Below are positions 15,136 through 60,781 of a DNA stretch of 64,000 bases, in pieces (the stretch's first letter is position 1; the number at the start of each line of letters is the position of its first letter). The DNA lies in assembly GCA_934167685.1 (NCBI GenBank), contig CAKPLQ010000001.1:2624-66623 (forward strand), given 5' to 3'. The stretch is from an uncultured Clostridia bacterium (GTDB lineage Bacteria; Bacillota; Clostridia; TANB77; CAG-508). Below the pieces are notes generated by a model. That model did no database searches, was not told where the DNA came from, and worked only from the letters and a program-made list of their open reading frames with translations. Position numbers and translations under genes: made by a program.

Positions 15136-16233
15136 ATGAAAAAGAAAGTACTACATATTTCATGTGGTGGATTAGGATATGGTGGAGTTAGTTCAGTAAT
15201 ATTTTCAATTGTTGAAAAACTGTATTCTAGATTTGATTTTGAATGCATTGTTTTTAAAAAAAGATGTAATAGAGAAAAAGAATTTTTAAAATATGGAAAA
15301 TTGCATAGAATACAAGCATATAATGATGATGGAAAAAGACATTTAATGGAATTAATTTTAAGACCGTTTAGATTGTATATAAATATCTTTAAAATTTGTA
15401 AGAAAGAACAATATTATGTGGTACATGCTCATAATTACTTTGATGAAGGAATATGTCTATGGGCTGCTAAAAATGCTGGAGTTCCAATCAGAATTGCTCA
15501 TAGTCATAGTACAATGTCACCTCATAAAAAAAGATTCTTGGTTAAATTACAAGAAAAAATAAATAAATCAATGATAAAAAGATTTGCAACACATAGAATA
15601 GGATGTTCTGATGCTGCTTGCAAAGATTTTTTCGGTGATATAGAATATAATGTAATTTTCAACTCAGTAAATTTAGAAAAATTTGCCCCTAAAATGTCAA
15701 AGAATAATGAAGTTTTAACATTTATTCATGTTGGTAGGTATACATATCAAAAAAACCAAGAATTTGTTATAAAAATATTTTACAATATTAAGAAAAAAAT
15801 ATCAAAAAGTAGACTAATGCTTGTTGGGTTTGGAGAAGATAAAGAAAAATTAATTAAGTTGGTTAATGAATTAAACTTAAGTGAGTCAGTTTTTTTTATT
15901 CCCGGAGACAAAGGAGATATTTCGAGAGTTTACGATGAAGCAGATTATATGATTTTTCCTTCAATATATGAAGGATTTGGAATTGTTTTGTTGGAAGCTC
16001 AATCAAAAAGAATTCCATGCTTTGTTTCGGAAGCAATTCAAAAGGAAGTTGATGTAGGACTACTAAATTATATAAACTTAAGTGAGTCGGAAGAGGACTG
16101 GGCAGAGAAAATTTTATTATACATCAATAAGAAATGTAAAATTAATGACAACACAATATCAGAGAACTTAAAAAAATTTAGTATAAGTACAATATGTGAG
16201 CAATATGCTAACATATATGGAGGAAACATATGA
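15136..16233 (+). CDS. glycosyltransferase family 4 (GT-B)
   Basis: Has ...FPSIYEGFGIVLLEAQSKRIPCFVSE... (E-x7-E). RBS GGAGGATATATG. Confidence 0.8.
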   Translation: MKKKVLHISCGGLGYGGVSSVIFSIVEKLYSRFDFECIVFKKRCNREKEFLKYGKLHRIQAYNDDGKRHLMELILRPFRLYINIFKICKKEQYYVVHAHNYFDEGICLWAAKNAGVPIRIAHSHSTMSPHKKRFLVKLQEKINKSMIKRFATHRIGCSDAACKDFFGDIEYNVIFNSVNLEKFAPKMSKNNEVLTFIHVGRYTYQKNQEFVIKIFYNIKKKISKSRLMLVGFGEDKEKLIKLVNELNLSESVFFIPGDKGDISRVYDEADYMIFPSIYEGFGIVLLEAQSKRIPCFVSEAIQKEVDVGLLNYINLSESEEDWAEKILLYINKKCKINDNTISENLKKFSISTICEQYANIYGGNI

Positions 16234-17633: not shown

Positions 17634-17646
17634 CAAGGAGGACTAC

Positions 17647-34708: not shown

Positions 34709-36031
34709 ATGAAAATAACGGTAGCTGGAACAGGATATGTTGGATTAGTGGCTGGGGTATGTTTTGCTGAGAAAGGCCATAACGTATTATGTGTAGATGT
34801 AGATGAAAATAAAGTAAAATTAATGAAACAGGGAAAATCTCCAATATATGAAGAGGGATTAGAAGAACTACTTGCTAAAAATTATAAAGAAGGAAGATTA
34901 GATTTTACAACAGATTATAAAATGGCATATAAGGATGCTGACGCAATATTTATAGGAGTTGGAACACCTGAACAACCAGATGGTTCTGCAAATCTAAGTT
35001 ATGTAGCAACAGTGTCAAGACAGATTGCTGAAAGTGTCGAAAAAGATTGTATTGTTGTTGTAAAATCAACAGTTCCAATAGGAACTAATGATAAGGTAGA
35101 ACAATTTATAGAAGATTCTTTGGTACATGATGTAAAAATTGAGGTAGCAAGTAATCCAGAATTTTTAGCTCAAGGACGAGCTGTAAAAGACACATTAGAA
35201 GCTAAAAGAATTGTAATAGGTACAGAATCTGAAAATGCTGAAAAAGTTTTAAGAGAAATTTATAAACCATTTAATTTACCAATAGTGTCTGTAAATAGAA
35301 GAAGTGCAGAAATGATTAAATATGCATCAAATGATTTTCTAGCATTAAAAATTTCGTATATGAATGATATTGCAAATTTATGTGAATTAGTTGGAGCAGA
35401 TATAGAAGATGTTGCTAGAGGAATGAGTTATGACCTAAGAATAGGAGCAAATTTCCTAAATGCTGGTATTGGATATGGAGGAAGCTGTTTTCCTAAAGAT
35501 ACAAAAGCTTTGAAATATTTGGCAAATCAACATGGATATGAACTAAAAACAGTTGAAGCTGCTGTTGATGTTAATACTGCACAAAAAACAAAATTATTCA
35601 GAAAAGCGTCAAAAAGAATGATAACATTCAAGGGACTAAAAATTGCAATATTAGGATTGACATTTAAACCAGGTACAGATGATTTACGAGAGGCACCTTC
35701 ATTAGATAATGTAAAATTGCTATTAGAAAGTGGAGCTGATAATATATATGCATATGACCCCGTAGGAATTGAGAATTTTAAAAAGAAATATCCAGATGAA
35801 TTAAAATATGTTGAAACACCAGAAGAAGCTCTTGAAAATGCTAATATATGTTTTATATTTACTGAATGGAATGAAATAAAATCTATAAAACCAGAAACAT
35901 ATAAGAAATTGATGAAAACACCATTAGTGTATGACGGAAGAAATATATATCAAGGTAAAGATATGCAAAAAGAAGGAATAGAATATTATTCTATTGGAAG
36001 ACAAGATGTAAATAGCAAAAAATTAGATTAA
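34709..36031 (+). CDS. UDP-glucose 6-dehydrogenase, long (~440-aa, TuaD/YwqF-like) form
   Basis: Has MKITVAGTGYVGLV and the catalytic cysteine region GYGGSCFPKDT, plus a C-terminal UDP-binding domain. RBS GAGGAG. Confidence 0.8.
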   Translation: MKITVAGTGYVGLVAGVCFAEKGHNVLCVDVDENKVKLMKQGKSPIYEEGLEELLAKNYKEGRLDFTTDYKMAYKDADAIFIGVGTPEQPDGSANLSYVATVSRQIAESVEKDCIVVVKSTVPIGTNDKVEQFIEDSLVHDVKIEVASNPEFLAQGRAVKDTLEAKRIVIGTESENAEKVLREIYKPFNLPIVSVNRRSAEMIKYASNDFLALKISYMNDIANLCELVGADIEDVARGMSYDLRIGANFLNAGIGYGGSCFPKDTKALKYLANQHGYELKTVEAAVDVNTAQKTKLFRKASKRMITFKGLKIAILGLTFKPGTDDLREAPSLDNVKLLLESGADNIYAYDPVGIENFKKKYPDELKYVETPEEALENANICFIFTEWNEIKSIKPETYKKLMKTPLVYDGRNIYQGKDMQKEGIEYYSIGRQDVNSKKLD

Positions 36032-37276: not shown

Positions 37277-37486
37277 TTACTTATTAGCCATATTATTTTC
37301 AACTTGTTGAATCATTTTTCTAACCATATTTCCACCTATTTTACCAGCATCTTTAGCTGATATATCACCATTGTACCCATCTTTTAAAGTTACACCTACT
37401 TCTGAAGCAACTTCATATTTAAATTTATCTAAAGCGCTCATAGCTTCTGGAACTAATTTTTTGTTACTATTGTTTGAGTTTGCCAT
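37277..37486 (-). CDS. alpha/beta-type small acid-soluble spore protein (SASP)
   Basis: MANSNNSNKKLVPEAMSALDKFKYEVASEVGV...GGNMVRKMIQQ carries both conserved SASP alpha/beta blocks. RBS AGGAGGTG. The ORF track start (MKNM...) is a GTG inside the RBS. Confidence 0.85.
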   Translation of the reverse strand: MANSNNSNKKLVPEAMSALDKFKYEVASEVGVTLKDGYNGDISAKDAGKIGGNMVRKMIQQVENNMANK

Positions 37487-37526
37487 GTTTTTCACCTCCT
37501 GTTATATATAACATTTAATTGTTTTG

Positions 37527-37621: not shown

Positions 37622-37702
37622 TGCACGTTTGGGACCGGTTCTTAACGGTGCAGTATTATAATTAGAAAAAATGCACCGTTAAGAACCGGTCCCAACGGTG
37701 CA
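37622..37702. repeat. palindromic repeat element copy B (hairpin dimer: unit - 19-nt A-rich loop - inverted unit)
   Basis: TGCACGTTTGGGACCGGTTCTTAACGGTGCA ... TGCACCGTTAAGAACCGGTCCCAACGGTGCA. It ends 22 nt before the cof-like start codon. Confidence 0.85.
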
Positions 37703-37724: not shown

Positions 37725-38681
37725 ATGTATAAATTAGCAACAATAGACTTAGATGGAACAATGTTAAATCAGTATGGAGTAGTAACAAACAGAACTAAAG
37801 AGGCAATAAAGAAAGCCAAAGAAAGAGGAATAGAAACAATAATTGCATCAGGCAGGCCAATAGATTCAATAAAGACAATTGCGCAAGAGATTGAAAGTGA
37901 TAAATATTTTATTTCTGGCAATGGAGCCATAATATATGATATTCAAAAAGATGAAATTATATACGAAAATACTCTAAAAAAATCGAAAGTTTTAGATATA
38001 ATCAAAATTTGTGAAGAAAATAGTATATATTATAATATTTATACAGAAAAAGAAATATTAGCAAAAAACCTACAGTGCAATGTTTTGTATTACTACAAAG
38101 AAAATTTGAACAAAGCAGAAAAGGATAAAACACATATAACTTTGATTGATGATATATATAAATATATAAGTGAAAGAGAAGAAAAGATTTTGAAAATAAC
38201 TGTATGTGATAGCACAAGAATAATATTCAATTCAATAATACGAAAATTAAAAGAAATAGATGAGGTAGAAGTATTGGACGTGTCACATATGTCAAGAAAA
38301 ATCATAAAGCAAGGAACAGAAGAGATACCAATAGAATATTTTTATACCGAAATTTCGGCTAAAAATGTCGATAAATGGAACGCAATACAAGTTTTAAAAG
38401 AAATTATGAATATAAAAACAGAGGAAATTATTGCAATAGGTGACAACATTAATGATAAAAAAATGATAGAAAATGCAGGATTGGGAATAGCAATGGGGCA
38501 AAGTACACCGCAAATAAAAGAAATAGCAAATCAGATTACAGATTCGAATTGCGAAGATGGTGTGGCTACGTTTTTAGAAAAGTGCACCGATGAGAACCGG
38601 TCCCAACGGTGCAAAAAATTGCACGGCAGAGAACCGGTCCCAACGGTGCAAACCTATAATTTTAAGGAAATGCACCGATAA
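37725..38681 (+). CDS. Cof-type HAD-IIB phosphatase with a repeat-derived C-terminal extension
   Basis: The N-terminal YKLATIDLDGTMLNQYGVVTNRTKEAIKKAKERGIETIIASGRP is HAD motif I/II. Near the C-terminus, ...IAIGDNINDKKMIENAGLGIAMGQS... is motif IV. The last ~34 codons (CTDENRSQRCKKLHGREPVPTVQTYNFKEMHR) are translated from the repeat array. Confidence 0.75.
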   Translation: MYKLATIDLDGTMLNQYGVVTNRTKEAIKKAKERGIETIIASGRPIDSIKTIAQEIESDKYFISGNGAIIYDIQKDEIIYENTLKKSKVLDIIKICEENSIYYNIYTEKEILAKNLQCNVLYYYKENLNKAEKDKTHITLIDDIYKYISEREEKILKITVCDSTRIIFNSIIRKLKEIDEVEVLDVSHMSRKIIKQGTEEIPIEYFYTEISAKNVDKWNAIQVLKEIMNIKTEEIIAIGDNINDKKMIENAGLGIAMGQSTPQIKEIANQITDSNCEDGVATFLEKCTDENRSQRCKKLHGREPVPTVQTYNFKEMHR

Positions 38682-38755
38682 GAACCGGTCCCAAACGTGC
38701 AAAAAGATGCCAAAAAAACAAAAATGCACGGCAGAGAACCGGTCCCAACGGTGCA
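38583..38755. repeat. array of four direct copies of the 31-nt GAACCGGTCCC-core unit (copy C1-C4) separated by 6-, 20- and 23-nt spacers
   Basis: Units are at 38583-38613, 38620-38650, 38671-38701 and 38725-38755, all in the same orientation. They overlap the 3' end of the cof-like ORF. Confidence 0.85.
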
Positions 38756-38882
38756 ATATTACAAAAATATTACAAAAATATTAAATTTATATTACAATAC
38801 ATGTATAATGTTGATTTTAGATGTAAAAAGAGGTAAAATTAATAAAGATAGCAATTAATGCGAAAATAAGGAGGAAATAAAG

Positions 38883-40202
38883 ATGGCGTCAAATCCAATG
38901 CAAAGAAAAGCAAGAAATTCATTCTTATTAGGAATGATAATAACACTATTAATAGCGGGAGTAATAATAGCTTTATTATTTGTGCAATTAAAACAAAAAT
39001 CAGATCAATTAAAGGCTGAGGCAAATGCAAAGAGAAATGTGTATGTTTTAAACCAGGATGTAAAATCAGGACAAGTTATAACAGAGGATATGTTTACAAC
39101 ACAACAGGTTAATAAAGATGCAATACCAAGTAATGCAACTGCAACAGCTTCTGTAATAAGTACGTGGTACGTTCAAACAAAAGATGGAAAAACTTTTAAT
39201 TCAGATTCTTACAATAACATAACTAATACAACTTTTAGCCAACCAACACAAGGGCTATACATAAATGAACCTGATTCAATTTTAGAAGTTGTTGAGATTG
39301 ATGGAAAAAAGTATAAATGTGTAGATAAATATACAGGCGATAAGAGTGGACTTGTTGAGGTTTCTTCAAGAGAAGAAGTTTCTCAAGATGATGATGGTGC
39401 ATATATTGTAGATTCTACAAATAGTTCTGATAAAATTACAAGAGTATATCAAGAGGCTACAACAGGAGAGTATTATGTGTATAAAATTGATACTGCTTCT
39501 ATGACAACAGGAAGTACTAAAACAAGAGTGAAAGAGTATTTGCCTTTGACTAATGTGCCTGTAGTTGCCAAAGTATCTATGAACAAAAATACTGTTGTTA
39601 CACCATATTTAGTAGTTCAATCTGATGAAGTTGTAACAGATGATGTAAGACAACAAGAATATAATATGGTAGTTTTACCTGTGGATTTAATGACAAATGA
39701 TTACATTGATATAAGATTGATGACACCTACTGGACAAGACTTTATTGTAGTATCTAAAGCTAAAGTTGATGTACCAATGAACACAGATGGTACATATGTA
39801 ACAGATACTATAAGAGTTAATCTAAGAGAAGATGAGATTTTATCTATGTCTAGTGCAATAGTAGAAGCTTATGGATTGTTAGGTTCAAAATTATATGCTA
39901 CAAAATATGTAGAGGCAGGAATGCAAGAACCATCATTACCAACATATACACCAAATGCAGCTGTAACAGCACAAATACAATCTGACCCTAATATCGTATC
40001 AGTAGCAAGCGAAGAATTGGCTTCAAGATATTCTGAACCAGCTAAAAAAGCTAGAAATGATTATTTACAATCTTTGATAAATAATTCAGAAGATTATAAT
40101 GAAAATATTCAAGACAAGGCAGATGAAAAAATAACAAATCAAACTACAGCAAGACAAAAATACTTGGAATCTCTAGCAAATGGTGGAGCAACAACAAATT
40201 AA
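38883..40202 (+). CDS. CpaB/RcpC-like Flp-pilus assembly protein (N-terminal transmembrane helix plus SAF-like domain) with a Thr/Val-rich extension
   Basis: Has an N-terminal transmembrane helix (FLLGMIITLLIAGVIIALLFV). The segment ...NVYVLNQDVKSGQVITEDMFTTQQV... resembles the CpaB SAF domain. It is the first gene of the Tad-like cluster. RBS AAGGAGGAAATAAAGATG. Confidence 0.45.
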   Translation: MASNPMQRKARNSFLLGMIITLLIAGVIIALLFVQLKQKSDQLKAEANAKRNVYVLNQDVKSGQVITEDMFTTQQVNKDAIPSNATATASVISTWYVQTKDGKTFNSDSYNNITNTTFSQPTQGLYINEPDSILEVVEIDGKKYKCVDKYTGDKSGLVEVSSREEVSQDDDGAYIVDSTNSSDKITRVYQEATTGEYYVYKIDTASMTTGSTKTRVKEYLPLTNVPVVAKVSMNKNTVVTPYLVVQSDEVVTDDVRQQEYNMVVLPVDLMTNDYIDIRLMTPTGQDFIVVSKAKVDVPMNTDGTYVTDTIRVNLREDEILSMSSAIVEAYGLLGSKLYATKYVEAGMQEPSLPTYTPNAAVTAQIQSDPNIVSVASEELASRYSEPAKKARNDYLQSLINNSEDYNENIQDKADEKITNQTTARQKYLESLANGGATTN

Positions 40203-40299
40203 TTAAAACAAAAGAGCAAGGGCTGACATTAATAAAAGCCCTTGCTATGTGAAATTTAAAACAAATTTTTAAATTAATGCAAGAAAGGAAAACTAAAAT

Positions 40300-40986
40300 A
40301 TGAAAAAAATCGGGTTTATAGGCGCTTGTGATAAGACTAATGTAATATTAAGTGTAGCTAAAGTTCTAACAATGGCTAACAGAAAAGTTCTAGTGTTGGA
40401 TAATACTATAACGCAAAAATGCAAATATGTAGTACCAGTTATAAACCCAACAAAATCATATATTACAACTTATGAAGATATAGATGTTGCAGTAGGGTTT
40501 GAAAATTTTGAGAATATAAGACAATATATGGGACTGGATGAAAACGAAAACTTTAATTATGATTATATCTTGGTGGATGTAGATAGTTTTGAAGGAATTC
40601 AAAAGTTTGGATTACAGTCTGCAGATAAAGCATATTTCGTAACATCATTTGACATGTATTCGTTGAAAAGGGGAGCAGAAATTATAAACCAATTAGGAGT
40701 TCCTACTAAAATGACCAGAATATTTTATTCAAAAGATTTATTAAAAGAAGAAGAAGAATACTTCGATTTTTTAATGTTGGGGTCAAAAGCAATATGGAAC
40801 GAAGAAAAAGTATATTTTGTTTTAGAAAATGGAGATTGGCCAGCAATAATGGAAAATGAACGTATTTCTAAAATTAAATTCAAAAACTTGAGCAATGAAT
40901 ATAAGGCAAATATTACTTTTTTAGTAAATGATATAGATGAAGGAATAGGAAATAAGGCAATAAAGAATATTATAAAAAGTCTTTAA
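40300..40986 (+). CDS. TadZ/CpaE-like ParA/MinD-fold protein with a degenerate Walker A (paralog 1)
   Basis: The N-terminus KIGFIGACDKTNVILSVAKVL is a deviant P-loop with a MinD/ParA-like architecture. It lies immediately upstream of a paralog and the CpaF-like ATPase. Confidence 0.45.
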   Translation: MKKIGFIGACDKTNVILSVAKVLTMANRKVLVLDNTITQKCKYVVPVINPTKSYITTYEDIDVAVGFENFENIRQYMGLDENENFNYDYILVDVDSFEGIQKFGLQSADKAYFVTSFDMYSLKRGAEIINQLGVPTKMTRIFYSKDLLKEEEEYFDFLMLGSKAIWNEEKVYFVLENGDWPAIMENERISKIKFKNLSNEYKANITFLVNDIDEGIGNKAIKNIIKSL

Positions 40987-41002
40987 TTAAAGGAGTTAAG
41001 AT

Positions 41003-41869
41003 ATGGCAATTGTAACATTTTGGAATAATGATAGAGAACAATCCGGAAAGACTCTAACAGCGGTTGCTGTTGCAACTAAAATGGCTATAGAACGCAATTA
41101 TAAAATTTTATTAATTTCAACAAGTTTTCAAGATACAACATTAAGAAATTGCTTTTGGGAAAATGAAACGCAAAGAACATTAAAATTGTTTGGAATGAAA
41201 AGTAATAATATAGCTGTTGAAACTGGGATTGAGGGACTGGCAAAACTTATATCAGCAAATAAGTTAACGCCAACTACAATTACAGATTATACAAAAGTAA
41301 TTTTTAAAGGAAGATTAGAAGTTATAAGTGGATTTATGGGAGCAAAAGAACTTACTAGAGCGACAAATTATGCAGAATATGAAAAAATACAAAAAATTTA
41401 TGTTGATTTAATTAAAACAGCCAATCAATACTATGATATGGTATTAGTTGACTTAGATAAATATATGCCAGAAGATTTGACAAAAGAAATTTTGAAATTA
41501 TCAAATTTGAATGTAATAGTTTTCTCTCAGAGAAAAGAAAGCTTAGACAGATATATGATGTTAAGAGAAAAAGACCCTATAATAAATAGTCCAAAAACTT
41601 TGCCAGTTGTTGGAAAGTATATGGATAAAACTAAATATAATATGAAAAATATAATGAAATATTTAGGCAATAGAAAAGATTTAAGCGTAATTCCTCTTAA
41701 TATGTTATATTTTGAAGCTTCAGAAGAAGCAGCAGTACCAGATTTGTTTTTAAGATTGCAGAATGTAAAAGACACATCAGATGAAAATTACATTTTTATG
41801 CGAGATGTGCTAGAACTTATGGAGAAAATTATAAATAGATTGCAAGAATTGCAAATGAAAATGAGGTGA
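41003..41869 (+). CDS. TadZ/CpaE-like ParA/MinD-fold protein with a degenerate Walker A (paralog 2)
   Basis: The N-terminus IVTFWNNDREQSGKTLTAVAVATKMA is a deviant P-loop. The protein has a ParA-like length and position. Confidence 0.45.
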   Translation: MAIVTFWNNDREQSGKTLTAVAVATKMAIERNYKILLISTSFQDTTLRNCFWENETQRTLKLFGMKSNNIAVETGIEGLAKLISANKLTPTTITDYTKVIFKGRLEVISGFMGAKELTRATNYAEYEKIQKIYVDLIKTANQYYDMVLVDLDKYMPEDLTKEILKLSNLNVIVFSQRKESLDRYMMLREKDPIINSPKTLPVVGKYMDKTKYNMKNIMKYLGNRKDLSVIPLNMLYFEASEEAAVPDLFLRLQNVKDTSDENYIFMRDVLELMEKIINRLQELQMKMR

Positions 41870-41873
41870 AAAA

Positions 41874-43793
41874 ATGACGCTAACTAATATATTATTAACA
41901 ATAGTTGTTATAATACTTGCCGGAGGAGGCATAGCATATTTTGTAAAAAGAAATAAAAATGCCGAAGTTGAAGAACAAATAGAAAAAGACGAGAAAACAT
42001 ATACTTTAGATGCTATGAGAAACTATATTAAAAAGAGATTAGACGAAATAACTAAAGTAAACTTGTATGATATTGGATTGTCAGAAGAGGAATTAAAACG
42101 TAGAAAAAACAAAAAGTACGCATTAAAAAAGGCCTTAAAAGGTTGTACTTATGGAGACGTTAATGACAAAAGATATGTAAAAGAGCTTATTTCAGATTTA
42201 TTATCAAAAGAGTATGGTGTAAATGAAGCCAATATATCAAGTGCAATTCCATTTGATATGCCATCATTACTAACATCTCAAGATAAATTTGATATATTAA
42301 TATATGTCTATAAAAAAGAATTTGGATATGAAGCATTAACACAATTGATAAAAAGATATAACTTAGCAACTTTAAAATATTTAGAAGGTGAAACAAAACC
42401 TTGTTATGTAATAACAGATGATGAGATTGATCAAATATTTGAAAAAGAAAAAATCACATTGTCATTCCAAGATAAACTAGAAGTTGTAGTACAAAGAATA
42501 TATCAACATTATAAAGGTTATAGCTCAATAGATGAGATAAGAGATATGAACATAGATGGTGTATCTGGTGGTGTATCTGGTTTACCAGAAAGCTTTTTAA
42601 GCCAAGTAGCACAAACAGATGGAGATTATTTAGACCAAGTAGCTGAACACAAAGTACCAAGAGCTTGTGACAGTATATGGATATTCTTCCAAGGTAAATC
42701 AATACGTTTAGCATTCTTATCATTTGGCACAGAATCAGAATTAAAAAGAGTATGTCAAAATATTTATAAATACAATAACCCAGGACAGTTATCAGATACA
42801 AATGGTTATAAAATCAATGAAATGAAAGATGGTTCTCGTGTTGTTGTAGTAAGACCATCAATGTCAGAAACATGGGCATTCTTTGTAAGAAAGTTCGATG
42901 TAAAAAGAGCAACAGTTGAACAATGGACTGGTAACATGCCAGGAAATGATAAAGTAATTGATTTACTAAAATTCTTAGTAAAAGGAGCAAGAATTACATC
43001 AATCACTGGTGAGCAGGGTTGTGGTAAAACAACACTACTTATGGGTATGATTGAAAATATATATGAAACAATGAACTTACGTATTACAGAAACTGCTTTC
43101 GAGTTGCACTTAAGAAAAGTTTATCCAACAAGAAACATTTTGTCAATGCGTGAAACAGATACAATATCTGGACAAGAGTGTTTGGACGTACAGAAAAAAA
43201 CTGACGGTTCTGTAAACATCATAGGTGAGGTTGCAACAGACCCCGTAGCATCTTGGATGATTCAATCTGCACAGGTTGCATCTAAATTTACATTATTTAC
43301 TCACCATGCTAAAACATTCCCAGACTTAGTAACTGCACTACGTAACTCAATGTTAAGAGCTGGAGTATTCAAAAATGAAAAAACAGCAGAAGAGCAAGTA
43401 GTTCAAGTACTAAATTTCGACATACATCTACAAAAAGACTTTAGAGGTAGAAGATACATAGAAAGAGTAACAGAATGTATTCCAATTGTAGACCAAAAGA
43501 CATATGATTATGACTATAAAGGTGAAAAAACTATGGATGGAAAAGTTCAAAAATTCTTTGAAAATGCAACAACATATTTCTCAAAAGTAACAGAGCAAAA
43601 TCTATATAGATATCAAAATATATTGGAATATGTAGATGGAGAATATCAAATAACAAATAAAATAACAGATAAAAACTTAGCAGAAATGAGAGCTAATATG
43701 GACGAATCTGATATAGAAGAATTTGACAGCTTTGTTGATACATATTGGGGAGACCAAATTAGAAAAGAAAAAAAGGCTAAAGTGCAGAAGTAG
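41874..43793 (+). CDS. CpaF/TadA-family secretion ATPase (VirB11-like) with an N-terminal transmembrane anchor
   Basis: Walker A motif ITGEQGCGKTTLLMGM, an Asp box, and a Walker B motif within ...GSVNIIGEVATDP.... The His box lies near ...LFTHHAKT.... Residues 5-24 (ILLTIVVIILAGGGIAYFV) form a predicted transmembrane helix. Confidence 0.75.
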   Translation: MTLTNILLTIVVIILAGGGIAYFVKRNKNAEVEEQIEKDEKTYTLDAMRNYIKKRLDEITKVNLYDIGLSEEELKRRKNKKYALKKALKGCTYGDVNDKRYVKELISDLLSKEYGVNEANISSAIPFDMPSLLTSQDKFDILIYVYKKEFGYEALTQLIKRYNLATLKYLEGETKPCYVITDDEIDQIFEKEKITLSFQDKLEVVVQRIYQHYKGYSSIDEIRDMNIDGVSGGVSGLPESFLSQVAQTDGDYLDQVAEHKVPRACDSIWIFFQGKSIRLAFLSFGTESELKRVCQNIYKYNNPGQLSDTNGYKINEMKDGSRVVVVRPSMSETWAFFVRKFDVKRATVEQWTGNMPGNDKVIDLLKFLVKGARITSITGEQGCGKTTLLMGMIENIYETMNLRITETAFELHLRKVYPTRNILSMRETDTISGQECLDVQKKTDGSVNIIGEVATDPVASWMIQSAQVASKFTLFTHHAKTFPDLVTALRNSMLRAGVFKNEKTAEEQVVQVLNFDIHLQKDFRGRRYIERVTECIPIVDQKTYDYDYKGEKTMDGKVQKFFENATTYFSKVTEQNLYRYQNILEYVDGEYQITNKITDKNLAEMRANMDESDIEEFDSFVDTYWGDQIRKEKKAKVQK

Positions 43794-43822
43794 TAAATAA
43801 ACATAGGAGGTGTTCTTAGAAC

Positions 43823-45892
43823 ATGAGTACTCAAATGCTAAAATATATAATGATTATAACAGTTGTATTGTTTGTAGGAATCATTATAGCATATGTAATT
43901 TTAAAAAAGATGATGGGAAAATCAGAATATGCAAAGATGAAGAAACTACAAGAAGGAACAAAGGCTGACGGATTTTCATCAGATATATTATACCAAAAAA
44001 TATATATAACGCTTATTAGGACACCTTTTCTAAAAAGATATTTATTCAAATTAAGAAGAAGACTAGAAATAGTCAATATAGATGATGAATATACAACCAG
44101 AAAAGAAGCAGCGCAAATAATGACAAAAGCAATATTAATATTCTTTTTTATAGCGTTGCTAACCATTCTTATTACACACAATAACTGGTTATTAATGTCA
44201 ATATTATTGATTTTTGAGTTATTTATTGTAGATACAATGGTACAAGGAATGGTTGATAAAATTGATAATAACTTACTTAAAGAGCAGATAGATTTCTTTG
44301 CAGAAATAAGACATGCTTACCATGAGTATAACATGGTTGAAGAAGCAATTTATCAAGTATCACTTGATGATGAAAAAAATGTTTCTAAACAAGGTGAAAA
44401 AATATATGAAATATTATGTTCAGATGACCCAGAAACAGAATTAGAAAAATATTATGATGTAGCACCAAATGATTATTTAAAAGAATTTGCTGGTATATCT
44501 TATTTAACACAAGAATTTGGAGATAGAAGAGGAGATGACGGTTCTTCTTTATATCTAAAAAATGTTGATAATATAACACAAGAAATGCAATTAGAGATAT
44601 TAAAAAGAGATAAATTGAACTATGTATTCCAGAGTTTAACATTTATTTCAATAGCTCCAGTATTGCTATTGGAACCATTAAAATCTTGGGCAGTATCGAA
44701 CTTCTATTTTACAACAAGTTTTTATAATGACAAATTAGGATTAGTAGCACAGATTTTAATAGTACTTTTAACAGTAGTGTCATACATAATGACAAGAAAA
44801 TTAAAAGATAATGGTGGTGTTCAAGTACAAATATCTCATAATGACCACCCATGGCAAGAAAAAGTATACAAAATACCAGTATTAAAACAAGCAATAAATT
44901 GTTTTATACCAAAGCCGGGAACTAAAGATTATAGAACAATGCAACAACTTATGAAAGATTCGGCATCAAAAGCTAAAATGGAATGGATTTACATTAACAG
45001 ATTAGCACTGACAATTGTTACATTTATATGTTCAATATTTTTCTTTATAATATTACATAAAGTAGCAATTAATTATGTTTATACAAATCCTACAACAGAA
45101 CAAACTGTGCTGGGGTCTTTGTCGGAAAAGAACCAGAAAAAAGCAGAAGACTTAACTAAGCAAGATAACTACTTCTTAGACAAATTAAAAGGAGACTTAA
45201 AAATAACTCAAGACAAAGTTGAAAGAGAAATGATAAAATCTCCATATTATGAAGAAGATGATAAAAATTTAGAAACAGATGCAAAAAGAATAATGACTAA
45301 ATTAAAAGTTGTAAATTCTGAGCAAATGCAGTGGTTTGAAATATTATTAGCTTGCGGGTTTGCTTTAATTGGATATATGGCACCTGTTTGGATGATGTAT
45401 TTCCAAAAATTCATGAGAAAGCTAGAAATGGAAAATGAAGTAATGCAGTTCCAAACAATTATATTAATGCTTATGAAAATAGAGAGAATAAGTGTAGAAA
45501 TGATTTTGGAATGGCTAGAAAGATATGCAAATATTTATAAAGAGCCTATCTCTAGGTGTGTAAATAATTACGAAGCAGGAGCATGGGAAGCATTAGAAGA
45601 GCTTAAAAACTCTGTAACAAATCAAGATATGATAAGAATTGTAGAAAGTCTACAAGCAGCAGTAGAAAAAATACCAATCAAAGAAGCATTTGATGAATTA
45701 GATGCAGATAGAGATTATCACCAACAAAAGAGAAAAGATACTAATGACCAATTAGTATCAAGAAAAGGCTTAATAGGAAAGGGTGTAGGCTTTGCACCAA
45801 TGATTTGTTTATTTGTGGGATATTTGATTATACCATTAGTTGTAATAGGTATGACGTCTATGTCATCTACATTTACTCAATTAGGTGCTTAA
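43823..45892 (+). CDS. fused two-domain TadB/TadC-like (T2SSF-type) inner-membrane platform protein
   Basis: 689 aa with an N-terminal transmembrane helix and two clusters of transmembrane helices separated by cytoplasmic helical domains. Its position directly after the ATPase is typical of platform proteins. Confidence 0.55.
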   Translation: MSTQMLKYIMIITVVLFVGIIIAYVILKKMMGKSEYAKMKKLQEGTKADGFSSDILYQKIYITLIRTPFLKRYLFKLRRRLEIVNIDDEYTTRKEAAQIMTKAILIFFFIALLTILITHNNWLLMSILLIFELFIVDTMVQGMVDKIDNNLLKEQIDFFAEIRHAYHEYNMVEEAIYQVSLDDEKNVSKQGEKIYEILCSDDPETELEKYYDVAPNDYLKEFAGISYLTQEFGDRRGDDGSSLYLKNVDNITQEMQLEILKRDKLNYVFQSLTFISIAPVLLLEPLKSWAVSNFYFTTSFYNDKLGLVAQILIVLLTVVSYIMTRKLKDNGGVQVQISHNDHPWQEKVYKIPVLKQAINCFIPKPGTKDYRTMQQLMKDSASKAKMEWIYINRLALTIVTFICSIFFFIILHKVAINYVYTNPTTEQTVLGSLSEKNQKKAEDLTKQDNYFLDKLKGDLKITQDKVEREMIKSPYYEEDDKNLETDAKRIMTKLKVVNSEQMQWFEILLACGFALIGYMAPVWMMYFQKFMRKLEMENEVMQFQTIILMLMKIERISVEMILEWLERYANIYKEPISRCVNNYEAGAWEALEELKNSVTNQDMIRIVESLQAAVEKIPIKEAFDELDADRDYHQQKRKDTNDQLVSRKGLIGKGVGFAPMICLFVGYLIIPLVVIGMTSMSSTFTQLGA

Positions 45893-45906
45893 ACATGGAG
45901 GTTTAG

Positions 45907-46689
45907 ATGGAGAATGTAACAAAGGCACTGCTTATAGCTGCTGGAATACTATTAGCAATTATGATTTTAACTTTACTCATAGTATTCTGGGGACAATTAT
46001 CAGGATATTATACGCAACAACATAATGATAAAATTGTTGAACAAGAGGCTAAAATCAATGCAAAATTTGAAAATTATAATGGACAAACAATAAGAGGAAA
46101 TGAATTAGTTTCAGTTATGAATATGGTTATCGACTATAATAATGCTGTAGCAGAAATGGACGGATTTGATAAAGTAATTATGTCTGTTGATTTTAAAGGA
46201 TGCCAGAACAAATCAAAAGATAATTTTAAATATAGTGATTCAGATAGAAGCATATTTTCTGGAAACATTCTTACAAATTCACAATCAAGTGATGCAAATT
46301 TAAAAAATGTAGCAAATATTCCAGAGACAATACGTTTAAAGTTACAAAATGCAGGATTTGATAATGTTACTGATGCACAACTTCAAAAATTGTCTGCAAA
46401 TATATATAATATTGTAAATATCAATTCTGCAGATACAAATGGTATTAATACCAGAAACAGAAAACTTCAAAATATTCTTTTATTAAGTGATGATGAAGTA
46501 AGAGCATTATCAGCGTCAAAAATTTCTACAATAGAAGAAGTAACTAAACAATATTATCAATATACACAATTTAAAAGAGCTATGTTTAAGTGCACAGGTG
46601 TTGAACACAATACAACCGGAAATGCAAGAGTAAATAAAATAACATTTGATATAGTATTATTAGATAATGGAAGTGCAAAATTTAATTAA
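45907..46689 (+). CDS. leaderless Flp/pilin-like protein, paralog 1 (MENVTKALLIAAGILLAIMIL...)
   Basis: An in-frame TAG lies directly before the ATG. RBS GGAGG 6 nt upstream. The N-terminal 25 aa are conserved with three downstream paralogs. 260 aa in total. Confidence 0.5.
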   Translation: MENVTKALLIAAGILLAIMILTLLIVFWGQLSGYYTQQHNDKIVEQEAKINAKFENYNGQTIRGNELVSVMNMVIDYNNAVAEMDGFDKVIMSVDFKGCQNKSKDNFKYSDSDRSIFSGNILTNSQSSDANLKNVANIPETIRLKLQNAGFDNVTDAQLQKLSANIYNIVNINSADTNGINTRNRKLQNILLLSDDEVRALSASKISTIEEVTKQYYQYTQFKRAMFKCTGVEHNTTGNARVNKITFDIVLLDNGSAKFN

Positions 46690-46705
46690 TTGAAAGGATA
46701 CTTGT

Positions 46706-47152
46706 ATGGAAAATGCGGTTAAAGCCTTGTATATAGCAGCCGGAGTGTTAATTGCAGTAATGATTTTGTCTTTAGCTGCTGTAGTATATTCAAGTTTGCA
46801 AGGTTATGTAGAAAATACAAATCAACAGATAGAATTTAATGAAATAAATAGTTTTAATACGCAATATCTTGATTATGCTAATAAAGATGTTTCTATTCAA
46901 GATATAGTAACAGTTGCAGGCAATGCATATGAAAACAATTATTCATATAGTCCAGATATTAATCAATGGAATATTTCTGATAAATCTTTTTATGTGCAAG
47001 TTTTATTAAATGGAACTAGAATAGACCAAAATATTAATGATATAATGGTTAACTTATTAGAAAATAACAAGGATAAAGTATTTGTAACTGATGATATATC
47101 ATATGCAAAAGACACTTCAAAAGTGTGCAGTATAAGTTTTAAAACAAAGTAA
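46706..47152 (+). CDS. leaderless Flp/pilin-like protein, paralog 2 (MENAVKALYIAAGVLIAVMIL...)
   Basis: An in-frame TGA lies 15 nt upstream, with no alternative start possible in between. The N-terminus is conserved with the paralogs. Confidence 0.5.
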   Translation: MENAVKALYIAAGVLIAVMILSLAAVVYSSLQGYVENTNQQIEFNEINSFNTQYLDYANKDVSIQDIVTVAGNAYENNYSYSPDINQWNISDKSFYVQVLLNGTRIDQNINDIMVNLLENNKDKVFVTDDISYAKDTSKVCSISFKTK

Positions 47153-47199
47153 AAAAATGTTGCAATTTAAAAAATTAAATGTTATAATGAGGGAAAATA

Positions 47200-47637
47200 A
47201 TGAAAAAAGTAATTATGTTTTTAGCTATTATTGTAATTATTATAGTTACTTTAGTAGGATATAGATATATTTCTTATAAAAATCATTATAAGGAAATTCA
47301 AAAAGAAAATTCTGATTTTGATAAATATAAAGACCAAGAAGTATATGGCTTAGATGTAGCCTCATTAATAAATATGGCTATAGATAAGAATACTAAAAAT
47401 AAAATTGAAAAAGATGATAATGGAAACTTTATTACAAATGAAGAAAATTCTATAGAAATTGAAATTTATATGACAGATAATGATACTACATATAAAATGG
47501 AAAGTATTAGTAATTCTGGAATAGAGCAATTTCTACAGTATTATAAAGACATAAAATTTAAATGTTCAAAAATAGAGTATCATAAAAACACAGGAAGAGT
47601 TAAATATATACTATTTGAACAACAAGAAAACAGTTAA
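47200..47637 (+). CDS. small N-terminally anchored membrane protein of the Tad-like locus (TadE/pseudopilin-like?)
   Basis: MKKVIMFLAIIVIIIVTLVGY: a single N-terminal transmembrane helix followed by a ~120-aa extracytoplasmic domain. Confidence 0.35.
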   Translation: MKKVIMFLAIIVIIIVTLVGYRYISYKNHYKEIQKENSDFDKYKDQEVYGLDVASLINMAIDKNTKNKIEKDDNGNFITNEENSIEIEIYMTDNDTTYKMESISNSGIEQFLQYYKDIKFKCSKIEYHKNTGRVKYILFEQQENS

Positions 47638-47694
47638 TAAAGTTCAGCGAGAGCTGATTATGATAAACAAAAGTATAAAAAGGGGGGAGAAACT

Positions 47695-48105
47695 ATGGAA
47701 AACGCAACAAAGGCATTATTAATTGCAGCAGCAGTTTTAATAGCTATCTTAATTATCTCTTTAGGATTAGTTGTTTATAATAACTCTGCAAACACTGTTA
47801 ATCAAGCAAACTTATCATCACAAGAGATACAAGCTCAAAATGAGAAGTTTACAAGATATAATGGTAAATACAAAAGAGGTTCTGAAGTAAACTCTTTATT
47901 ACAAACAGCATTAAACTATAATTTAAATACTACAGACGATGGAAATAAAGTTACAGTGAATTATGGAAAAGAGACGCTAGTAGATAGTAGTTCTACAAGC
48001 ATAGAAAAACAAATGGACACAAGTAAATTATATGACATTAAAGTTAATTATGGTGGAGCTGGAGGACTTGTAGATACAATTACAATAACTGATGCAGCAA
48101 AATAA
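47695..48105 (+). CDS. leaderless Flp/pilin-like protein, paralog 3 (MENATKALLIAAAVLIAILII...)
   Basis: RBS GGGGGGAG 5 nt upstream. The N-terminal motif is conserved. The C-terminus is Gly-rich (YGGAGGLVD). Confidence 0.5.
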   Translation: MENATKALLIAAAVLIAILIISLGLVVYNNSANTVNQANLSSQEIQAQNEKFTRYNGKYKRGSEVNSLLQTALNYNLNTTDDGNKVTVNYGKETLVDSSSTSIEKQMDTSKLYDIKVNYGGAGGLVDTITITDAAK

Positions 48106-48135
48106 TAAAATTAATGAGTGAAAGGGGATATACTT

Positions 48136-48843
48136 ATGGAAAATGCGATAGAAGCTTTAAAAATTGCAGGAGCAGTATTAATGTTTGTATTGGCATTGAC
48201 ATTAAGTATATCTTCTTTGTCTCAAGCCAATTCAGCAGTTAGTAGTATTGCAACAATGTATGATAAAGATGCACAATCTACTTATGTTCAGCCAGCACAA
48301 GACTTAACAAGAGTAGTAGGAATGGAAACAATAATTCCTACAATGTATAAAGCTTATGAAGAAAACATAGAAATATATTTCTTTAAAGCAGATGGAAGTC
48401 CACTACCAATATATTATAAAACAAATCAATATGGTAGTAGAGTGGATTCAGAAGGTAAATCTGTAGCCAATAGCAATCCTAATGCTGTAACAGTAAATTA
48501 TATAGACTTATCTAAAGAAAGTTTTGGAACAGAAAATGGAAAAGAAGCTACACAAGTGGCAACAGAGCACTTAAGCTTAATATTAGCTGGTGGAAACAAG
48601 TGGAAAAATCAATATAGAAATAACCAAGAAATGTTAAATTTATTAGATGAGAAAAAATATGGAAATCAATTAATGGATACAGAATATCCAAATGGTTTTT
48701 ATGCATATTTAAATGGTAAAAAATTTGTCGAAAATTTAGGTGAATATTATCAAGGTTCAAATCAAGATGAAGACGAGAGTTTAGCAAGTACAACTGCTAC
48801 GAAAATTAAAAAAAGAGTTATAACATACAAATTAACAAACTAA
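48136..48843 (+). CDS. leaderless Flp/pilin-like protein, paralog 4 (MENAIEALKIAGAVLMFVLAL...)
   Basis: Start at the ATG following AAAGGGGA. The ORF track begins at an upstream GTG (MKGDIL...). The N-terminal motif is conserved. Confidence 0.45.
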   Translation: MENAIEALKIAGAVLMFVLALTLSISSLSQANSAVSSIATMYDKDAQSTYVQPAQDLTRVVGMETIIPTMYKAYEENIEIYFFKADGSPLPIYYKTNQYGSRVDSEGKSVANSNPNAVTVNYIDLSKESFGTENGKEATQVATEHLSLILAGGNKWKNQYRNNQEMLNLLDEKKYGNQLMDTEYPNGFYAYLNGKKFVENLGEYYQGSNQDEDESLASTTATKIKKRVITYKLTN

Positions 48844-48856
48844 AAGGAGAAAACAG

Positions 48857-49417
48857 ATGGAAGATACATCTATGGATATAATAGGAATATTGTTTGGTGC
48901 AATATTAATGTTTGTAGTTCCACTATTTTTAATTGCGAATAAATCTGATGATATATCTCAATTAGTAGCACAATCTGCTACATCTGAGTTCGTAAATGAG
49001 GTTGTAAGGTCTGGACAAATTACTGCAGATGAATATCAAAGTTTTATGACCACATTAAACACATCTGGAAATACATTTGACATAGATATACATGTTCAAA
49101 TTCTAGATGAAACACCATCAAAAATGGTAACAGATGCAGATGCACAAAAGATAGGAACAAACTCATATTACTCATTATACACAACTCAAGTTGAGAGCAA
49201 AATTGGAAACTCTTCTGCAACAACGTCCAATAATAGAGTTGGAAAACTTATATTAAAACAAGGAGACCAAGTTTCTGTAACAGTAAAAAATAGTAGTAAA
49301 ACACTATCTCAAGCTTTAAGAAATGTATATTACAATGTAACAGGAAATGATATACATATAATTGCAGCTGCAGCATCAGGTACTGTAACAATAAATGGTT
49401 CTACAGGAACAATATAA
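48857..49417 (+). CDS. small N-terminally anchored membrane protein of the Tad-like locus
   Basis: MEDTSMDIIGILFGAILMFVVPLFLIANKSDD: one transmembrane helix followed by a ~150-aa Ser/Thr-rich extracytoplasmic domain. RBS AAGGAGAAAACAGATG. Confidence 0.35.
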   Translation: MEDTSMDIIGILFGAILMFVVPLFLIANKSDDISQLVAQSATSEFVNEVVRSGQITADEYQSFMTTLNTSGNTFDIDIHVQILDETPSKMVTDADAQKIGTNSYYSLYTTQVESKIGNSSATTSNNRVGKLILKQGDQVSVTVKNSSKTLSQALRNVYYNVTGNDIHIIAAAASGTVTINGSTGTI

Positions 49418-49511
49418 AAAGACTAATTAATGAAAAAAATTTAATTAGTCTTTTTTTGTGTATAAAAAATTTTTAAGTACTAATAATAAAAAACAAAGGA
49501 GTGAAAAATTC

Positions 49512-50570
49512 ATGAAAACACTCAAAAAAATACTTTTTTTATTTGTACTAATTTTTTTATATGTATTTTTATTAACAAGAGGCTATTATCCAGAAACAAT
49601 AGCAGTAAAAGGCGAAGAAATTCGATTATCAGATATTCAAGTAATTCCAATAGGGCAAGTTGCAGGAATAAAATTATATACAAGTGGAGTACTAGTTGTA
49701 GGGACATCTGGAATTCAAAGTACGGATGGCAAAACATACAAACCTTATGAAAATACTGGAATACAAGAAGGTGATTCAATAAATTCAATTAATGACATTA
49801 TAGTAAATAATACAGAAGAATTAATAGATGCAGTCAATTTGTATGAAGGAAAAACAGTACATGTAAAATATACAAGAGATAATCAAGAAAAAACTTGTGA
49901 AATAACTCCAGTAAAAGACAGAAGTGGAAAATATAAATTAGGTTTATGGGTTAGAGATAGTGCTGCAGGAGTTGGAACTATAACCTTTTATTATGAAGAA
50001 AACAATACATTTGCAGGATTAGGACATGGAATAACTGACATAGATACAGGAGATATAATACAAACATCTTCTGGAGAAATAGATGAAGCAAGTATTGTAT
50101 CTATAGTAAAAGGCAAGGATGGAGAACCTGGGAAAATTCAAGGAAGTATAAAACAAGATAGTGTTATTGGAAGTATTTACAAAAATACTCCATATGGAAT
50201 TTATGGGATGATAAAAGAACCTAATAATATAAAAATAGATACTTCTAGAAAAATAAATGTGGCACCTAGACAAGAAATAAGTCTAGGAGAAGCAACAATT
50301 TTATCTAATATTAGTGGAGACCTAAAAGAATATAAAATCGAAATACAGAAAACTTATTTAAATAATAATTATGATAACAAAAGTATGGTACTAAAAGTTG
50401 TAGACCCACAATTATTAGAATTAACAGGCGGAATAATTCAAGGAATGAGTGGTTCGCCAATTATACAAAACAATAAATTTATAGGAGCTGTAACACATGT
50501 TTTTGTAAAAGATTCTAGTATTGGTTATGCTGTTTTTGCAGATAGAATGGTTAGTGAAATATGCAGATAA
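49512..50570 (+). CDS. spoIVB: SpoIVB-family serine peptidase (PDZ plus S55 peptidase)
   Basis: Has a signal anchor (KKILFLFVLIFLYVFLL) and a PDZ segment (GIQEGDSINSINDIIVNNTEELIDAVN). The peptidase S55 motif ...GIIQGMSGSPIIQNNKFIGAVTHVF... is present. Start chosen at MKTLKK after the RBS AAAGGAGTG. Confidence 0.75.
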   Translation: MKTLKKILFLFVLIFLYVFLLTRGYYPETIAVKGEEIRLSDIQVIPIGQVAGIKLYTSGVLVVGTSGIQSTDGKTYKPYENTGIQEGDSINSINDIIVNNTEELIDAVNLYEGKTVHVKYTRDNQEKTCEITPVKDRSGKYKLGLWVRDSAAGVGTITFYYEENNTFAGLGHGITDIDTGDIIQTSSGEIDEASIVSIVKGKDGEPGKIQGSIKQDSVIGSIYKNTPYGIYGMIKEPNNIKIDTSRKINVAPRQEISLGEATILSNISGDLKEYKIEIQKTYLNNNYDNKSMVLKVVDPQLLELTGGIIQGMSGSPIIQNNKFIGAVTHVFVKDSSIGYAVFADRMVSEICR

Positions 50571-56742: not shown

Positions 56743-56773
56743 TGCACGTTTGGGACCGGTTCTCATCGGTGCA
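56743..56773. repeat. palindromic repeat element copy D (single 31-nt unit) directly after the glyQS stop
   Basis: TGCACGTTTGGGACCGGTTCTCATCGGTGCA, 7 nt after the TAA. Confidence 0.8.
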
Positions 56774-60706: not shown

Positions 60707-60781
60707 TGCACCGATGGGACCGGTTCTTAACGGTGCAGTATACATAAAAATGCACCGCTAAGAACCGGTCCCATCGGTGCA
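60707..60781. repeat. palindromic repeat element copy E (hairpin dimer) immediately after the ftsY stop
   Basis: TGCACCGATGGGACCGGTTCTTAACGGTGCA, the loop gtatacataaaaa, then TGCACCGCTAAGAACCGGTCCCATCGGTGCA. The loop is nearly identical to that of copy A. Confidence 0.85.

Follow-up and report, generated by a model that had tools for sequence, protein, structure and literature searches.

The stretch of DNA considered here (in the following, the window) comprises 64,000 nucleotides from an uncultured Clostridia bacterium of the order TANB77 (assembly GCA_934167685.1, contig CAKPLQ010000001.1) and features a base composition of about 28% GC. On its forward strand, positions 38883 to 49417 hold eleven closely packed open reading frames (ORFs), all of them where a preliminary description of the same sequence had placed them. 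In gene order, they encode a SAF domain protein of 439 amino acids (aa), two ParA/MinD-like proteins (228 and 288 aa), a 639-aa ATPase, a 689-aa protein with eight predicted transmembrane (TM) helices and six small proteins with one TM helix each, which are termed S1 to S6 and measure 260, 148, 145, 136, 235 and 186 aa. About 80 species carry the identical eleven genes in identical order. The matches of the locus proteins in Pfam, NCBIfam and the PDB are weak but mutually consistent, and the locus can be read with considerable confidence as encoding a divergent, monoderm filament machine of the tight-adherence (Tad) type, i.e., related to type IVc. The preliminary description had likewise recognised a Tad-related type IV filament locus, and the CpaF-like ATPase, the SAF protein and the platform protein matching TadB and TadC support this assignment, as does an independent annotation based on structures (PMC11680825). 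The same description had declared the subunits leaderless, and it is their processing on which most of the following evidence bears.

The first gene (38883..40202) encodes a CpaB/RcpC-like protein consisting of an N-terminal TM helix, the only one, a SAF domain (Pfam SAF, 26.3 bits at a cut-off of 21) and a long C-terminal extension; the CpaB model TIGR03177 was matched with E 1.8e-6, under its cut-off. This gene comes first in order in 76 loci. The two ParA/MinD-like proteins (40300..40986 and 41003..41869) gave sub-threshold library matches only, namely weak similarity to AAA_31 for the first and weak matches to CbiA and eps_fam for the second. Their P-loops are degenerate, as had been noticed earlier and as sequence logos confirmed (78 sequences for the first protein), and their TadZ-like and CpaE-like identities are structure-based calls (PMC11680825). 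The secretion ATPase (41874..43793) belongs to the CpaF/TadA family and features an invariant Walker A motif. Its nearest solved relatives are the Caulobacter CpaF structures 8rkd and 9e24 (E 1.8e-8 in a PDB search), while TIGR03819 (TadA family, E 1.8e-9) and T2SSE (E 5e-4) were both matched under their curated cut-offs. Across the 80 species, the ATPase is 75-95% identical; its catalytic half shares 33-59% identity with 'TadA' genes on plasmids, compared to 22-27% with canonical CpaF, and falls into a separate clade. An N-terminal TM helix, which is unusual for an ATPase of type IV filaments, is predicted at residues 6-24 (window 41874-41960); it is kept in TANB77 and on the Butyrivibrio plasmid pCY360 and missing from most plasmid relatives.

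The 689-aa protein (43823..45892) matched no Tad, pilus or secretion-system family in the libraries, phmmer and profile searches of it against the PDB returned nothing, and Pfam found no T2SSF domain in 13 diverse members of the family. Its nature emerges from HHalign comparisons of a family alignment, plasmid relatives included, with four TadB and four TadC proteins (Rhizobium, Serratia, Ralstonia, Streptomyces), that is, with thin reference profiles. The first half matched TadB with a probability of 85% (E 7e-6, 287 columns) and TadC with 1.4%, whereas the second half matched TadC with 39% (E 3e-4, 273 columns) and TadB with 0.1%; reversed-sequence controls reached at most 0.6%. Since the two halves match TadB and TadC with clean controls, the protein is regarded as an inner-membrane platform fused into one ORF, in line with the preliminary description. 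An internal-repeat test revealed no detectable similarity between the halves, and the AlphaFold2 (AF2) model, for which the input homologs were 79-100% identical, had a mean confidence (pLDDT) of 49 and was unusable. The order of the halves, TadB-like before TadC-like, disagrees with a published Foldseek comparison that gives TadC and then TadB (PMC11680825), and it is opposite to that of the archaeal platform, where TadC forms the N-terminal and TadB the C-terminal domain (PMC6668835). Because of this reversal relative to archaea, a secondary event that fused neighbouring tadB and tadC genes appears no less likely than an unsplit gene of ancestral origin, as far as thin reference profiles can tell. 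In Tad systems, the split into TadB and TadC is systematic according to Denise et al. (PMC6668835).

Canonical Tad, Flp or Cpa systems (tad of Aggregatibacter, cpa of Caulobacter; type IVc) resemble the locus in combining a CpaF/TadA ATPase, a CpaB/RcpC SAF protein, ParA-like proteins (in the window putatively TadZ/CpaE-like) and a TadB/TadC-homologous platform within a single locus. In contrast, they possess two platform genes where one polypeptide is found here, and their Flp pilins of about 50-80 aa carry the motif GxxxxEY with cleavage behind the Gly, unlike the 136-260-aa subunits with globular heads in TANB77. The window locus further differs by the lack of any Pfam match to TadE, TadF or TadG, by the absence of tadV in cis, by the TM anchor of its ATPase and by ParA-like proteins without evident receiver domain.

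Contrary to the earlier assumption that such a variant had not been described, the cluster, including its fused TadB/C-like platform, was published in 2024. Kim et al. (Nat Commun; PMC11680825) reported a 'TANB77 pilus gene cluster' in 122 of 129 species, called it exclusive to the order TANB77 and described it for proteins 927-938 of HRGM_Genome_2725 (CAG-245), an uncultured gut Clostridia genome. Their calls comprise CpaB, TadZ (~230 aa), CpaE (~280 aa), a TadA/CpaF of 640 aa with one TM helix, a 693-aa TadC+TadB protein with eight TM helices and 'pilin-like' proteins 932-938, of which 932-937 had no homologs and the counterpart of S3 was called 'signal peptide'. The order itself is an abundant uncultured gut lineage associated with checkpoint immunotherapy response; according to the same publication, dendritic cells are activated by one of the cluster proteins (PMC11680825). 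Gene order, near-identical sizes, the small one-TM proteins of 136-260 aa and the gut habitat agree with the window, whose locus proteins find matches in human-gut metagenome-assembled genomes and in 'Clostridium sp. CAG:356'. Unlike in the published cluster, spoIVB comes after S6 here, and protein 938 (621 aa), which had been assayed on dendritic cells, is missing; moreover, the claimed exclusivity is contradicted by 35 Firmicutes plasmids with the same architecture. The word 'prepilin' is absent from that publication, which addresses neither a leader nor the MEN motif nor a peptidase (PMC11680825). While the cluster as such is thus known, the present analysis adds figures for how invariant the N-terminus of the subunits is, shows that some 90 loci consistently lack a peptidase, places relatives on plasmids of culturable hosts and arrives at another order of the platform halves than the published one.

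Behind the platform gene, four of the six small proteins begin with Met-Glu-Asn (MEN) followed by a hydrophobic helix, namely S1 (45907..46689, MENVTKAL), S2 (46706..47152, MENAVKAL), S4 (47695..48105, MENATKA) and S5 (48136..48843, MENAIEAL). S3 (47200..47637) has a Sec-like N-terminus instead (MKKVIMFLAII...), and S6 (48857..49417) is a bitopic protein starting with MEDTSMDIIG.... Library searches with S1-S5 resulted in stray sub-threshold matches to unrelated families only, S6, scanned separately against Pfam, matched no family, and neither Flp_Fap nor TadE was found by Pfam among the locus proteins. Likewise, a regular-expression scan of the window for Flp or type IV pilin motifs was negative. 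HHalign comparisons of alignments built from the TANB77 loci showed that the heads of S1, S2, S3 and S4 are homologous (heads only, 96-99% probability), the head of S3 matching S2 with 99.0%, S1 with 98.5% and S4 with 96.0%, and S2 and S4 matching over their full length with 99.9%. S5 has an unrelated head and shares residues 1-37 alone with S1, S2 and S4. Accordingly, the idea of four paralogous subunits applies to the heads of S1, S2 and S4, but S5 belongs to them by its N-terminus only and the non-MEN protein S3 by its head. S6 showed no HHalign relation to S1-S5; homologs of ~184 aa stand at the same position on plasmids of Bacillales and Clostridia.

An AF2 model of a subunit, a check that had been suggested before, predicts a long N-terminal helix (residues 2-38) and an alpha/beta head (pLDDT 85.7). 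Together with the near-invariant helix, the varied heads and the row of paralogs behind the platform gene, this prediction suggests that the small proteins are pilin-like. The best candidate for the major subunit is S4, judging from its size, the smallest of the six, its strongest ribosome-binding site (RBS), its best-conserved N-terminus and its duplication in some species; its head is small and of the alpha/beta type.

The N-termini of the MEN proteins were studied with regard to translation starts. The nearest in-frame stop codons lie 3 nt (S1, TAG), 15 nt (S2, TGA), 57 nt (S4) and 21 nt (S5) upstream, so that the distance of 3-15 nt originally given for all four subunits is valid for S1 and S2, but not for S4 and S5. 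Between stop codon and MEN start, S1, S2 and S4 feature no in-frame ATG, GTG or TTG, which upholds the earlier exclusion of upstream starts for these three. S5 has an alternative GTG at 48118, 18 nt upstream, which lacks an RBS of its own and whose extension contains the RBS of the ATG; in 45 of 54 S5 orthologs, MEN is the earliest possible start. S1 is preceded by the RBS GGAGG. Among 230 orthologs and paralogs from the 80 species, conservation is extreme (M1 230, E2 228, N3 230, A4 216, A7 229, L8 226, A11 219), and these N-terminal positions are less variable than the hydrophobic helix. Because of the missing upstream starts and this conservation, translation from MEN without any longer leader is solid. 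The shared N-terminus originally described is thereby confirmed as near-invariant, except that S5 carries Glu instead of the Lys supposed for position 6, which is Lys/Arg in the S1, S2 and S4 families and Asp/Glu in the S5 family. At position 12, i.e., +5 after A7, Gly or Ala occurs in 214 of 230 proteins and none of the tallied residues is acidic; E2 is the sole conserved acidic residue. Beyond these loci, a profile search with S4 returned 4,086 clusters (50% identity) at E <= 1e-3 and 1,388 at E <= 1e-10. MEN starts were present in 148 of the best 150 cluster representatives, the listed matches align residue 1 to residue 1 save three shorter ones without N-terminal region, and over more than 1,000 clusters no part of the proteins is better conserved than the N-terminal 24 residues.

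The preliminary description concluded from the upstream stops that no leader can exist and aligned the subunits with mature Flp pilins. The alignment is not borne out, as HHalign assigned S4 and Flp a probability of 0.4%. Neither is the conclusion, for a missing upstream start excludes a long leader of the Flp type, which is different from excluding any leader. Class III signal peptides consist of a hydrophilic or neutral leader of 6-26 aa and about 21 hydrophobic residues, with the leader of Pseudomonas aeruginosa PilA measuring 6 aa; many exceptions to the Gly at the end of the leader are known from archaea, whose pilins also frequently lack Glu5 (PMC4471445). S4 fits this definition, since the 7 residues MENATKA (6-8 residues in the wider family) precede exactly 21 hydrophobic ones (L8-Y28). 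The residue before the helix is Ala in 229 of the 230 proteins, Gly in the relative from Butyrivibrio and Lys in that from C. argentinense. The Glu5 characteristic of type IV pilins is not found.

A search with the platform protein revealed the same architecture on 35 Firmicutes plasmids, in all of which the platform is annotated as 'hypothetical'. The hosts comprise Paenibacillus, Clostridium (C. botulinum, C. argentinense), Lysinibacillus (pBsph type), Butyrivibrio, Thermobacillus, Alkalihalophilus, Sporosarcina, Cytobacillus and Cohnella, and the megaplasmids with this architecture include NC_019898, NC_013792, NC_014389, NZ_CP014175, NZ_CP145893, NZ_CP014857, NZ_KT897275 and NZ_CP146247. 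The first small protein of each plasmid locus shows the common head motif Y..YD/N..[VI]SGSxV[IV]N. The N-termini, with the helix beginning behind the hyphen, read MSTNASKA-L in Thermobacillus, MDSVTKA-I in Alkalihalophilus, MDDNATKG-L in Butyrivibrio, MESPVVKA-I in Lysinibacillus, MGENARKA-L in C. botulinum, MGNAQSA-L in P. amylolyticus, MKESTSTA-L in Sporosarcina and MDSPVVKK-I in C. argentinense. From this comparison, the constant of the family is a polar stretch, 6-8 residues long, whose last residue is small, mostly follows a Lys and immediately precedes the helix. The comparative search proposed at the outset was hence fruitful with regard to the architecture, but MEN as such is specific to TANB77 as judged by the N-termini compared. 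An acidic residue at position 2 or 3 occurs in 7 of 9 lineages of the wider family, and the relatives from Thermobacillus and P. amylolyticus have none near the N-terminus. Additionally, C. sporogenes plasmid pNPD7 (6825-13287) holds a second, different Tad-like locus of non-canonical type. Besides a SAF protein, it encodes an ATPase of 468 aa and, in platform position, two proteins (298 and 359 aa) in which Pfam detects no T2SSF domain; several very small ORFs follow. Firmicutes plasmids thus appear to hold more than one unrecognised Tad-like lineage.

Taken together, these features can be assembled into a working model. A membrane-anchored, hexameric CpaF-like ATPase would drive the single fused TadB-TadC platform, with the CpaB-like SAF protein and the two catalytically degenerate ParA-like (TadZ/CpaE-like) proteins acting as scaffold or positioning factors. 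The bitopic subunits would be pulled from the membrane and polymerised via their conserved N-terminal helices, S4 being the probable major subunit, S1, S2 and S5 probable minor ones, and S3 and S6 accessory proteins. The product would most probably be an adhesive surface pilus; adhesion is inferred from the plasmid relatives, since their loci adjoin genes of giant SLH, DUF5704 and FN3 surface proteins as well as GGDEF/HD genes; in Bacillales, the SLH and DUF5704 proteins follow the locus, and several loci have GGDEF genes downstream. With a slight balance of evidence in its favour, an A24 prepilin peptidase whose gene lies at another place in the genome would cleave off the heptapeptide M-E-N-A-x-K-A. 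The explanation as a whole, i.e., a Tad-type machine with a short, archaeal-flavoured class III leader removed in trans, is given an even chance.

Apart from the class III layout, such processing is favoured by the K-A junction that recurs in Thermobacillus, Alkalihalophilus, Lysinibacillus and C. botulinum, and as K-G in Butyrivibrio, while the preceding residues vary in number and identity. Cleavage between A7 and L8 would also yield an uncharged N-terminus (LLIAAAVLIA...). Archaeal type IV pili (Epd-like, Aap) similarly feature Lys-Ala or Lys-Gly before a hydrophobic +1 residue, no Glu5 and globular heads (PMC4471445), and archaeal systems mostly possess a single two-domain platform protein (PMC6668835). 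Unlike in archaea, the ATPase is nearest to bacterial CpaF among solved relatives and not to ArlI/FlaI, and no archaeal-type peptidase was found here. Precedent for processing in trans comes from the MSH loci, which lack their own peptidase gene and rely, as has been proposed, on the enzyme of another system, and peptidases are known to be shared between systems (PMC6668835). The resemblance is limited to the locus without peptidase, as MSH pilins carry the canonical Gly at -1 and Glu5 and their genomes hold other type IV pilus or type II secretion systems. Bacillales and Clostridia, to which the hosts of the plasmid versions belong, generally carry ComC or PilD.

Several observations weigh against cleavage in trans. 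Bacterial prepilin peptidases cleave after Gly, whereas the -1 residue would be Ala in all but one of the MEN proteins and Lys in C. argentinense. For a leader that is discarded after cleavage, it is unusual that M-E-N stays invariant in four old paralog families, and the segment is without net positive charge. While the suggested structure prediction recovered the expected helix, fold comparison detected no similarity between the head and any solved pilin, and the filament itself is a prediction from the genes. No suitable enzyme was detected in the sequences covered. A screen for A24 peptidases by tblastn with two TadV probes and by the GxGD motif combined with TM helices recovered both positive controls, and in 1.86 Mb (the window, nine plasmid loci and the 80 TANB77 loci including flanks of ~10 kb at either end) it recovered these controls only. 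The earlier statement that the locus holds no peptidase is thereby extended to the whole window; small multi-TM ORFs do not occur within the locus, and the absence in cis is consistent across about 90 related loci. Nor was an A24 peptidase present on the complete 149-kb plasmid pTHECO01. A metagenome scan for a dispersed repeat of the window (see below) delivered 47 fragments with about 310 kb of non-redundant sequence at 29.7% GC from the same or a sister species, two of them overlapping the window at 96-97% identity. In these ~310 kb, there was no A24 gene, canonical prepilin, second secretion ATPase or further MEN gene, a negative result that is suggestive since the ~375 kb of the lineage sampled in total cover roughly a fifth to a quarter of the reduced genome. 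Compared to MSH-bearing genomes, no other such system or canonical prepilin was thus seen in the sampled part of this lineage.

These points lend weight to the strongest alternative, according to which the subunits are truly unprocessed and full-length proteins starting with (f)Met-Glu-Asn are extracted and polymerised in the absence of any prepilin peptidase. In this case, E2 and K6 (i, i+4), or E2 and the N-terminus of a neighbouring subunit, would neutralise each other in the filament core and replace the contact between Glu5 and the N-terminus. Methionine aminopeptidase specificity leaves Met in place before Glu, which is counted in favour of this alternative. Besides the missing A24 gene in about 90 loci, on one complete plasmid and in ~375 kb of the lineage, it draws on the genomic habits of canonical Tad systems, which almost always form a single locus (PMC6668835); both canonical loci with an Flp gene that were compared here carry tadV, directly downstream of that gene. 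Moreover, M1, E2 and N3 are more constant than the helix in all four paralog families, the MEN start persists in the divergent cluster representatives, an acidic residue at position 2 or 3 prevails in the wider family and the -1 residue is not Gly. A text search of the literature for leaderless pilins of type IV turned up no precedent. On the other hand, leader removal is required in every characterised type IV filament, and six polar residues with two charges would need to be buried in the core. The class III layout with a small residue conserved exactly at the expected cleavage position likewise speaks for a leader, and the relatives from Thermobacillus and P. amylolyticus indicate that E2 is no requirement throughout the family. 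As only ~20-25% of the genome has been sampled, the absence of a peptidase carries limited weight. Polymerisation of unprocessed subunits is therefore taken as a serious, tentative option that stays somewhat short of an even chance.

Independently of the processing state, the machine might not mainly be an adhesive pilus and could serve as a short pseudopilus or piston, or as an accessory of mating or DNA transfer. Within 10-25 kb of the plasmid relatives (pTHECO01 28.9-47.0 kb; pCY360 15781-18585), there are Gram-positive conjugation genes for a relaxase, a coupling protein, a TcpE-family protein, a VirB4-like ATPase and cell-wall hydrolases, pBsph-type plasmids carrying the system are reported to be conjugative (PMC13239906), and the best NCBIfam match of the ATPase is a 'TadA family conjugal transfer-associated ATPase'. 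In TANB77, however, the locus is chromosomal, occurs in 122 of 129 species and is not accompanied by relaxase or coupling protein genes, whereas the plasmids carry a separate, complete-looking conjugation module and were all classed as non-mobilizable by MOB-suite (35 of 35). The plasmid relatives may have a role in mating-pair formation; as a description of the TANB77 machine, this function is unlikely.

Finally, it is very improbable that the small proteins are no filament subunits at all but signal-anchored or Sec-secreted envelope proteins (adhesins, assembly factors) with the true pilin absent or unrecognised, as S3, which combines the head of S1/S2/S4 with a Sec-type N-terminus, and the lack of homologs for proteins 932-937 in the published cluster (PMC11680825) might suggest, because signal peptides and simple anchors evolve fast while the first 24 residues are the best conserved here, the n-region lacks the net positive charge typical of Gram-positive signal peptides, and in every member of the wider family the paralogs directly follow ATPase and platform, with no other pilin candidate in any locus.

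The operon is closed by an intrinsic terminator (49416..49460, forward strand) with a 15-bp stem and a U-run, whose minimum free energy of -14.6 kcal/mol (z = -5.9) was not equalled by any of 200 shuffled sequences. The next gene, spoIVB (49458-50570, forward strand; Peptidase_S55, E 2e-79), accompanies the pilus locus in conserved synteny in 66 of 80 species, yet the terminator lies between them. A sporulation channel similar to spoIIIA, which this neighbour might evoke, was rejected as gene families and sizes do not fit and the terminator before spoIVB is strong. An ORF on the reverse strand at 37277-37495 resembles by eye a small acid-soluble spore protein of the alpha/beta type; together with spoIVB in the flanking region, it suggests that this lineage with its reduced genome forms spores. 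A prophage or defence island was set aside, because the locus belongs to the syntenic core genome in 80 species. With regard to expression, the strongest promoter-like site on the forward strand of the locus lies in the gap between S2 and S3 (47160-47188; TTGCAA, 17 nt, TATAAT with TG extension, i.e., an extended -10), and a short GC-rich hairpin is situated between S3 and S4 (47644-47657). Together, these two elements might determine at what relative level the candidate major subunit is expressed.

Upstream of the locus lies a gene for a HAD hydrolase. The region from ~6500 to 37100, directly upstream, forms a surface polysaccharide locus with Polysacc_synt_2, Wzz, a Wzy-like polymerase and an LCP-family protein; it also holds several transporters with 10-13 TM helices and no Pfam match as well as a 440-aa ORF (34709-36031) that by eye resembles UDP-glucose dehydrogenase. 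The dispersed intergenic repeat mentioned above has the core GAACCGGTCCCAA within a hairpin TGCACCG...CGGTGCA and occurs in 11 copies in the window, compared to 0 expected. Copies are located at 38572-38764, 3234-3294, 37629-37695, 56750-56762 and 60714-60774. Four tandem copies of ~51 nt each stand just upstream of the pilus locus and reach into the 3' end of the HAD ORF, whereas inverted pairs are found elsewhere; the repeat resembles a REP- or MITE-like element, i.e., a repetitive extragenic palindrome or miniature inverted-repeat transposable element. A regulatory RNA or riboswitch upstream was dismissed, since the miRNA-like Rfam matches (mir-203 etc.) remained sub-threshold with 25-37 bits against gathering cut-offs of 53-90. 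Those at 37623-37701, on both strands, are artefactual because the inverted repeat pair forms a long hairpin.

The characterised type IV filaments, i.e., pili, type II secretion systems, Com pseudopili and archaella, share pilin, ATPase, platform and prepilin peptidase as four core parts. If the subunits were truly unprocessed, a branch of the type IV filament superfamily that is widespread in Firmicutes would manage with three of these four supposedly universal components, and the mature subunit would retain Met-Glu-Asn...Lys, which would neutralise charge in place of Glu5. Either a peptidase-free lineage or an archaeal-style Lys-Ala site in bacteria would change this four-part picture. The plasmid relatives make the question of processing experimentally accessible in culturable bacteria, namely L. 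sphaericus (pBsph), A. pseudofirmus OF4, T. composti, P. polymyxa M1 and B. proteoclasticus. The answer also bears on the origin of Tad systems from archaeal ancestors, including the issue of whether the platform is a fusion or an ancestral unsplit gene. Moreover, practical relevance arises from the fact that the system is core to TANB77, a gut order linked to immunotherapy response (PMC11680825).

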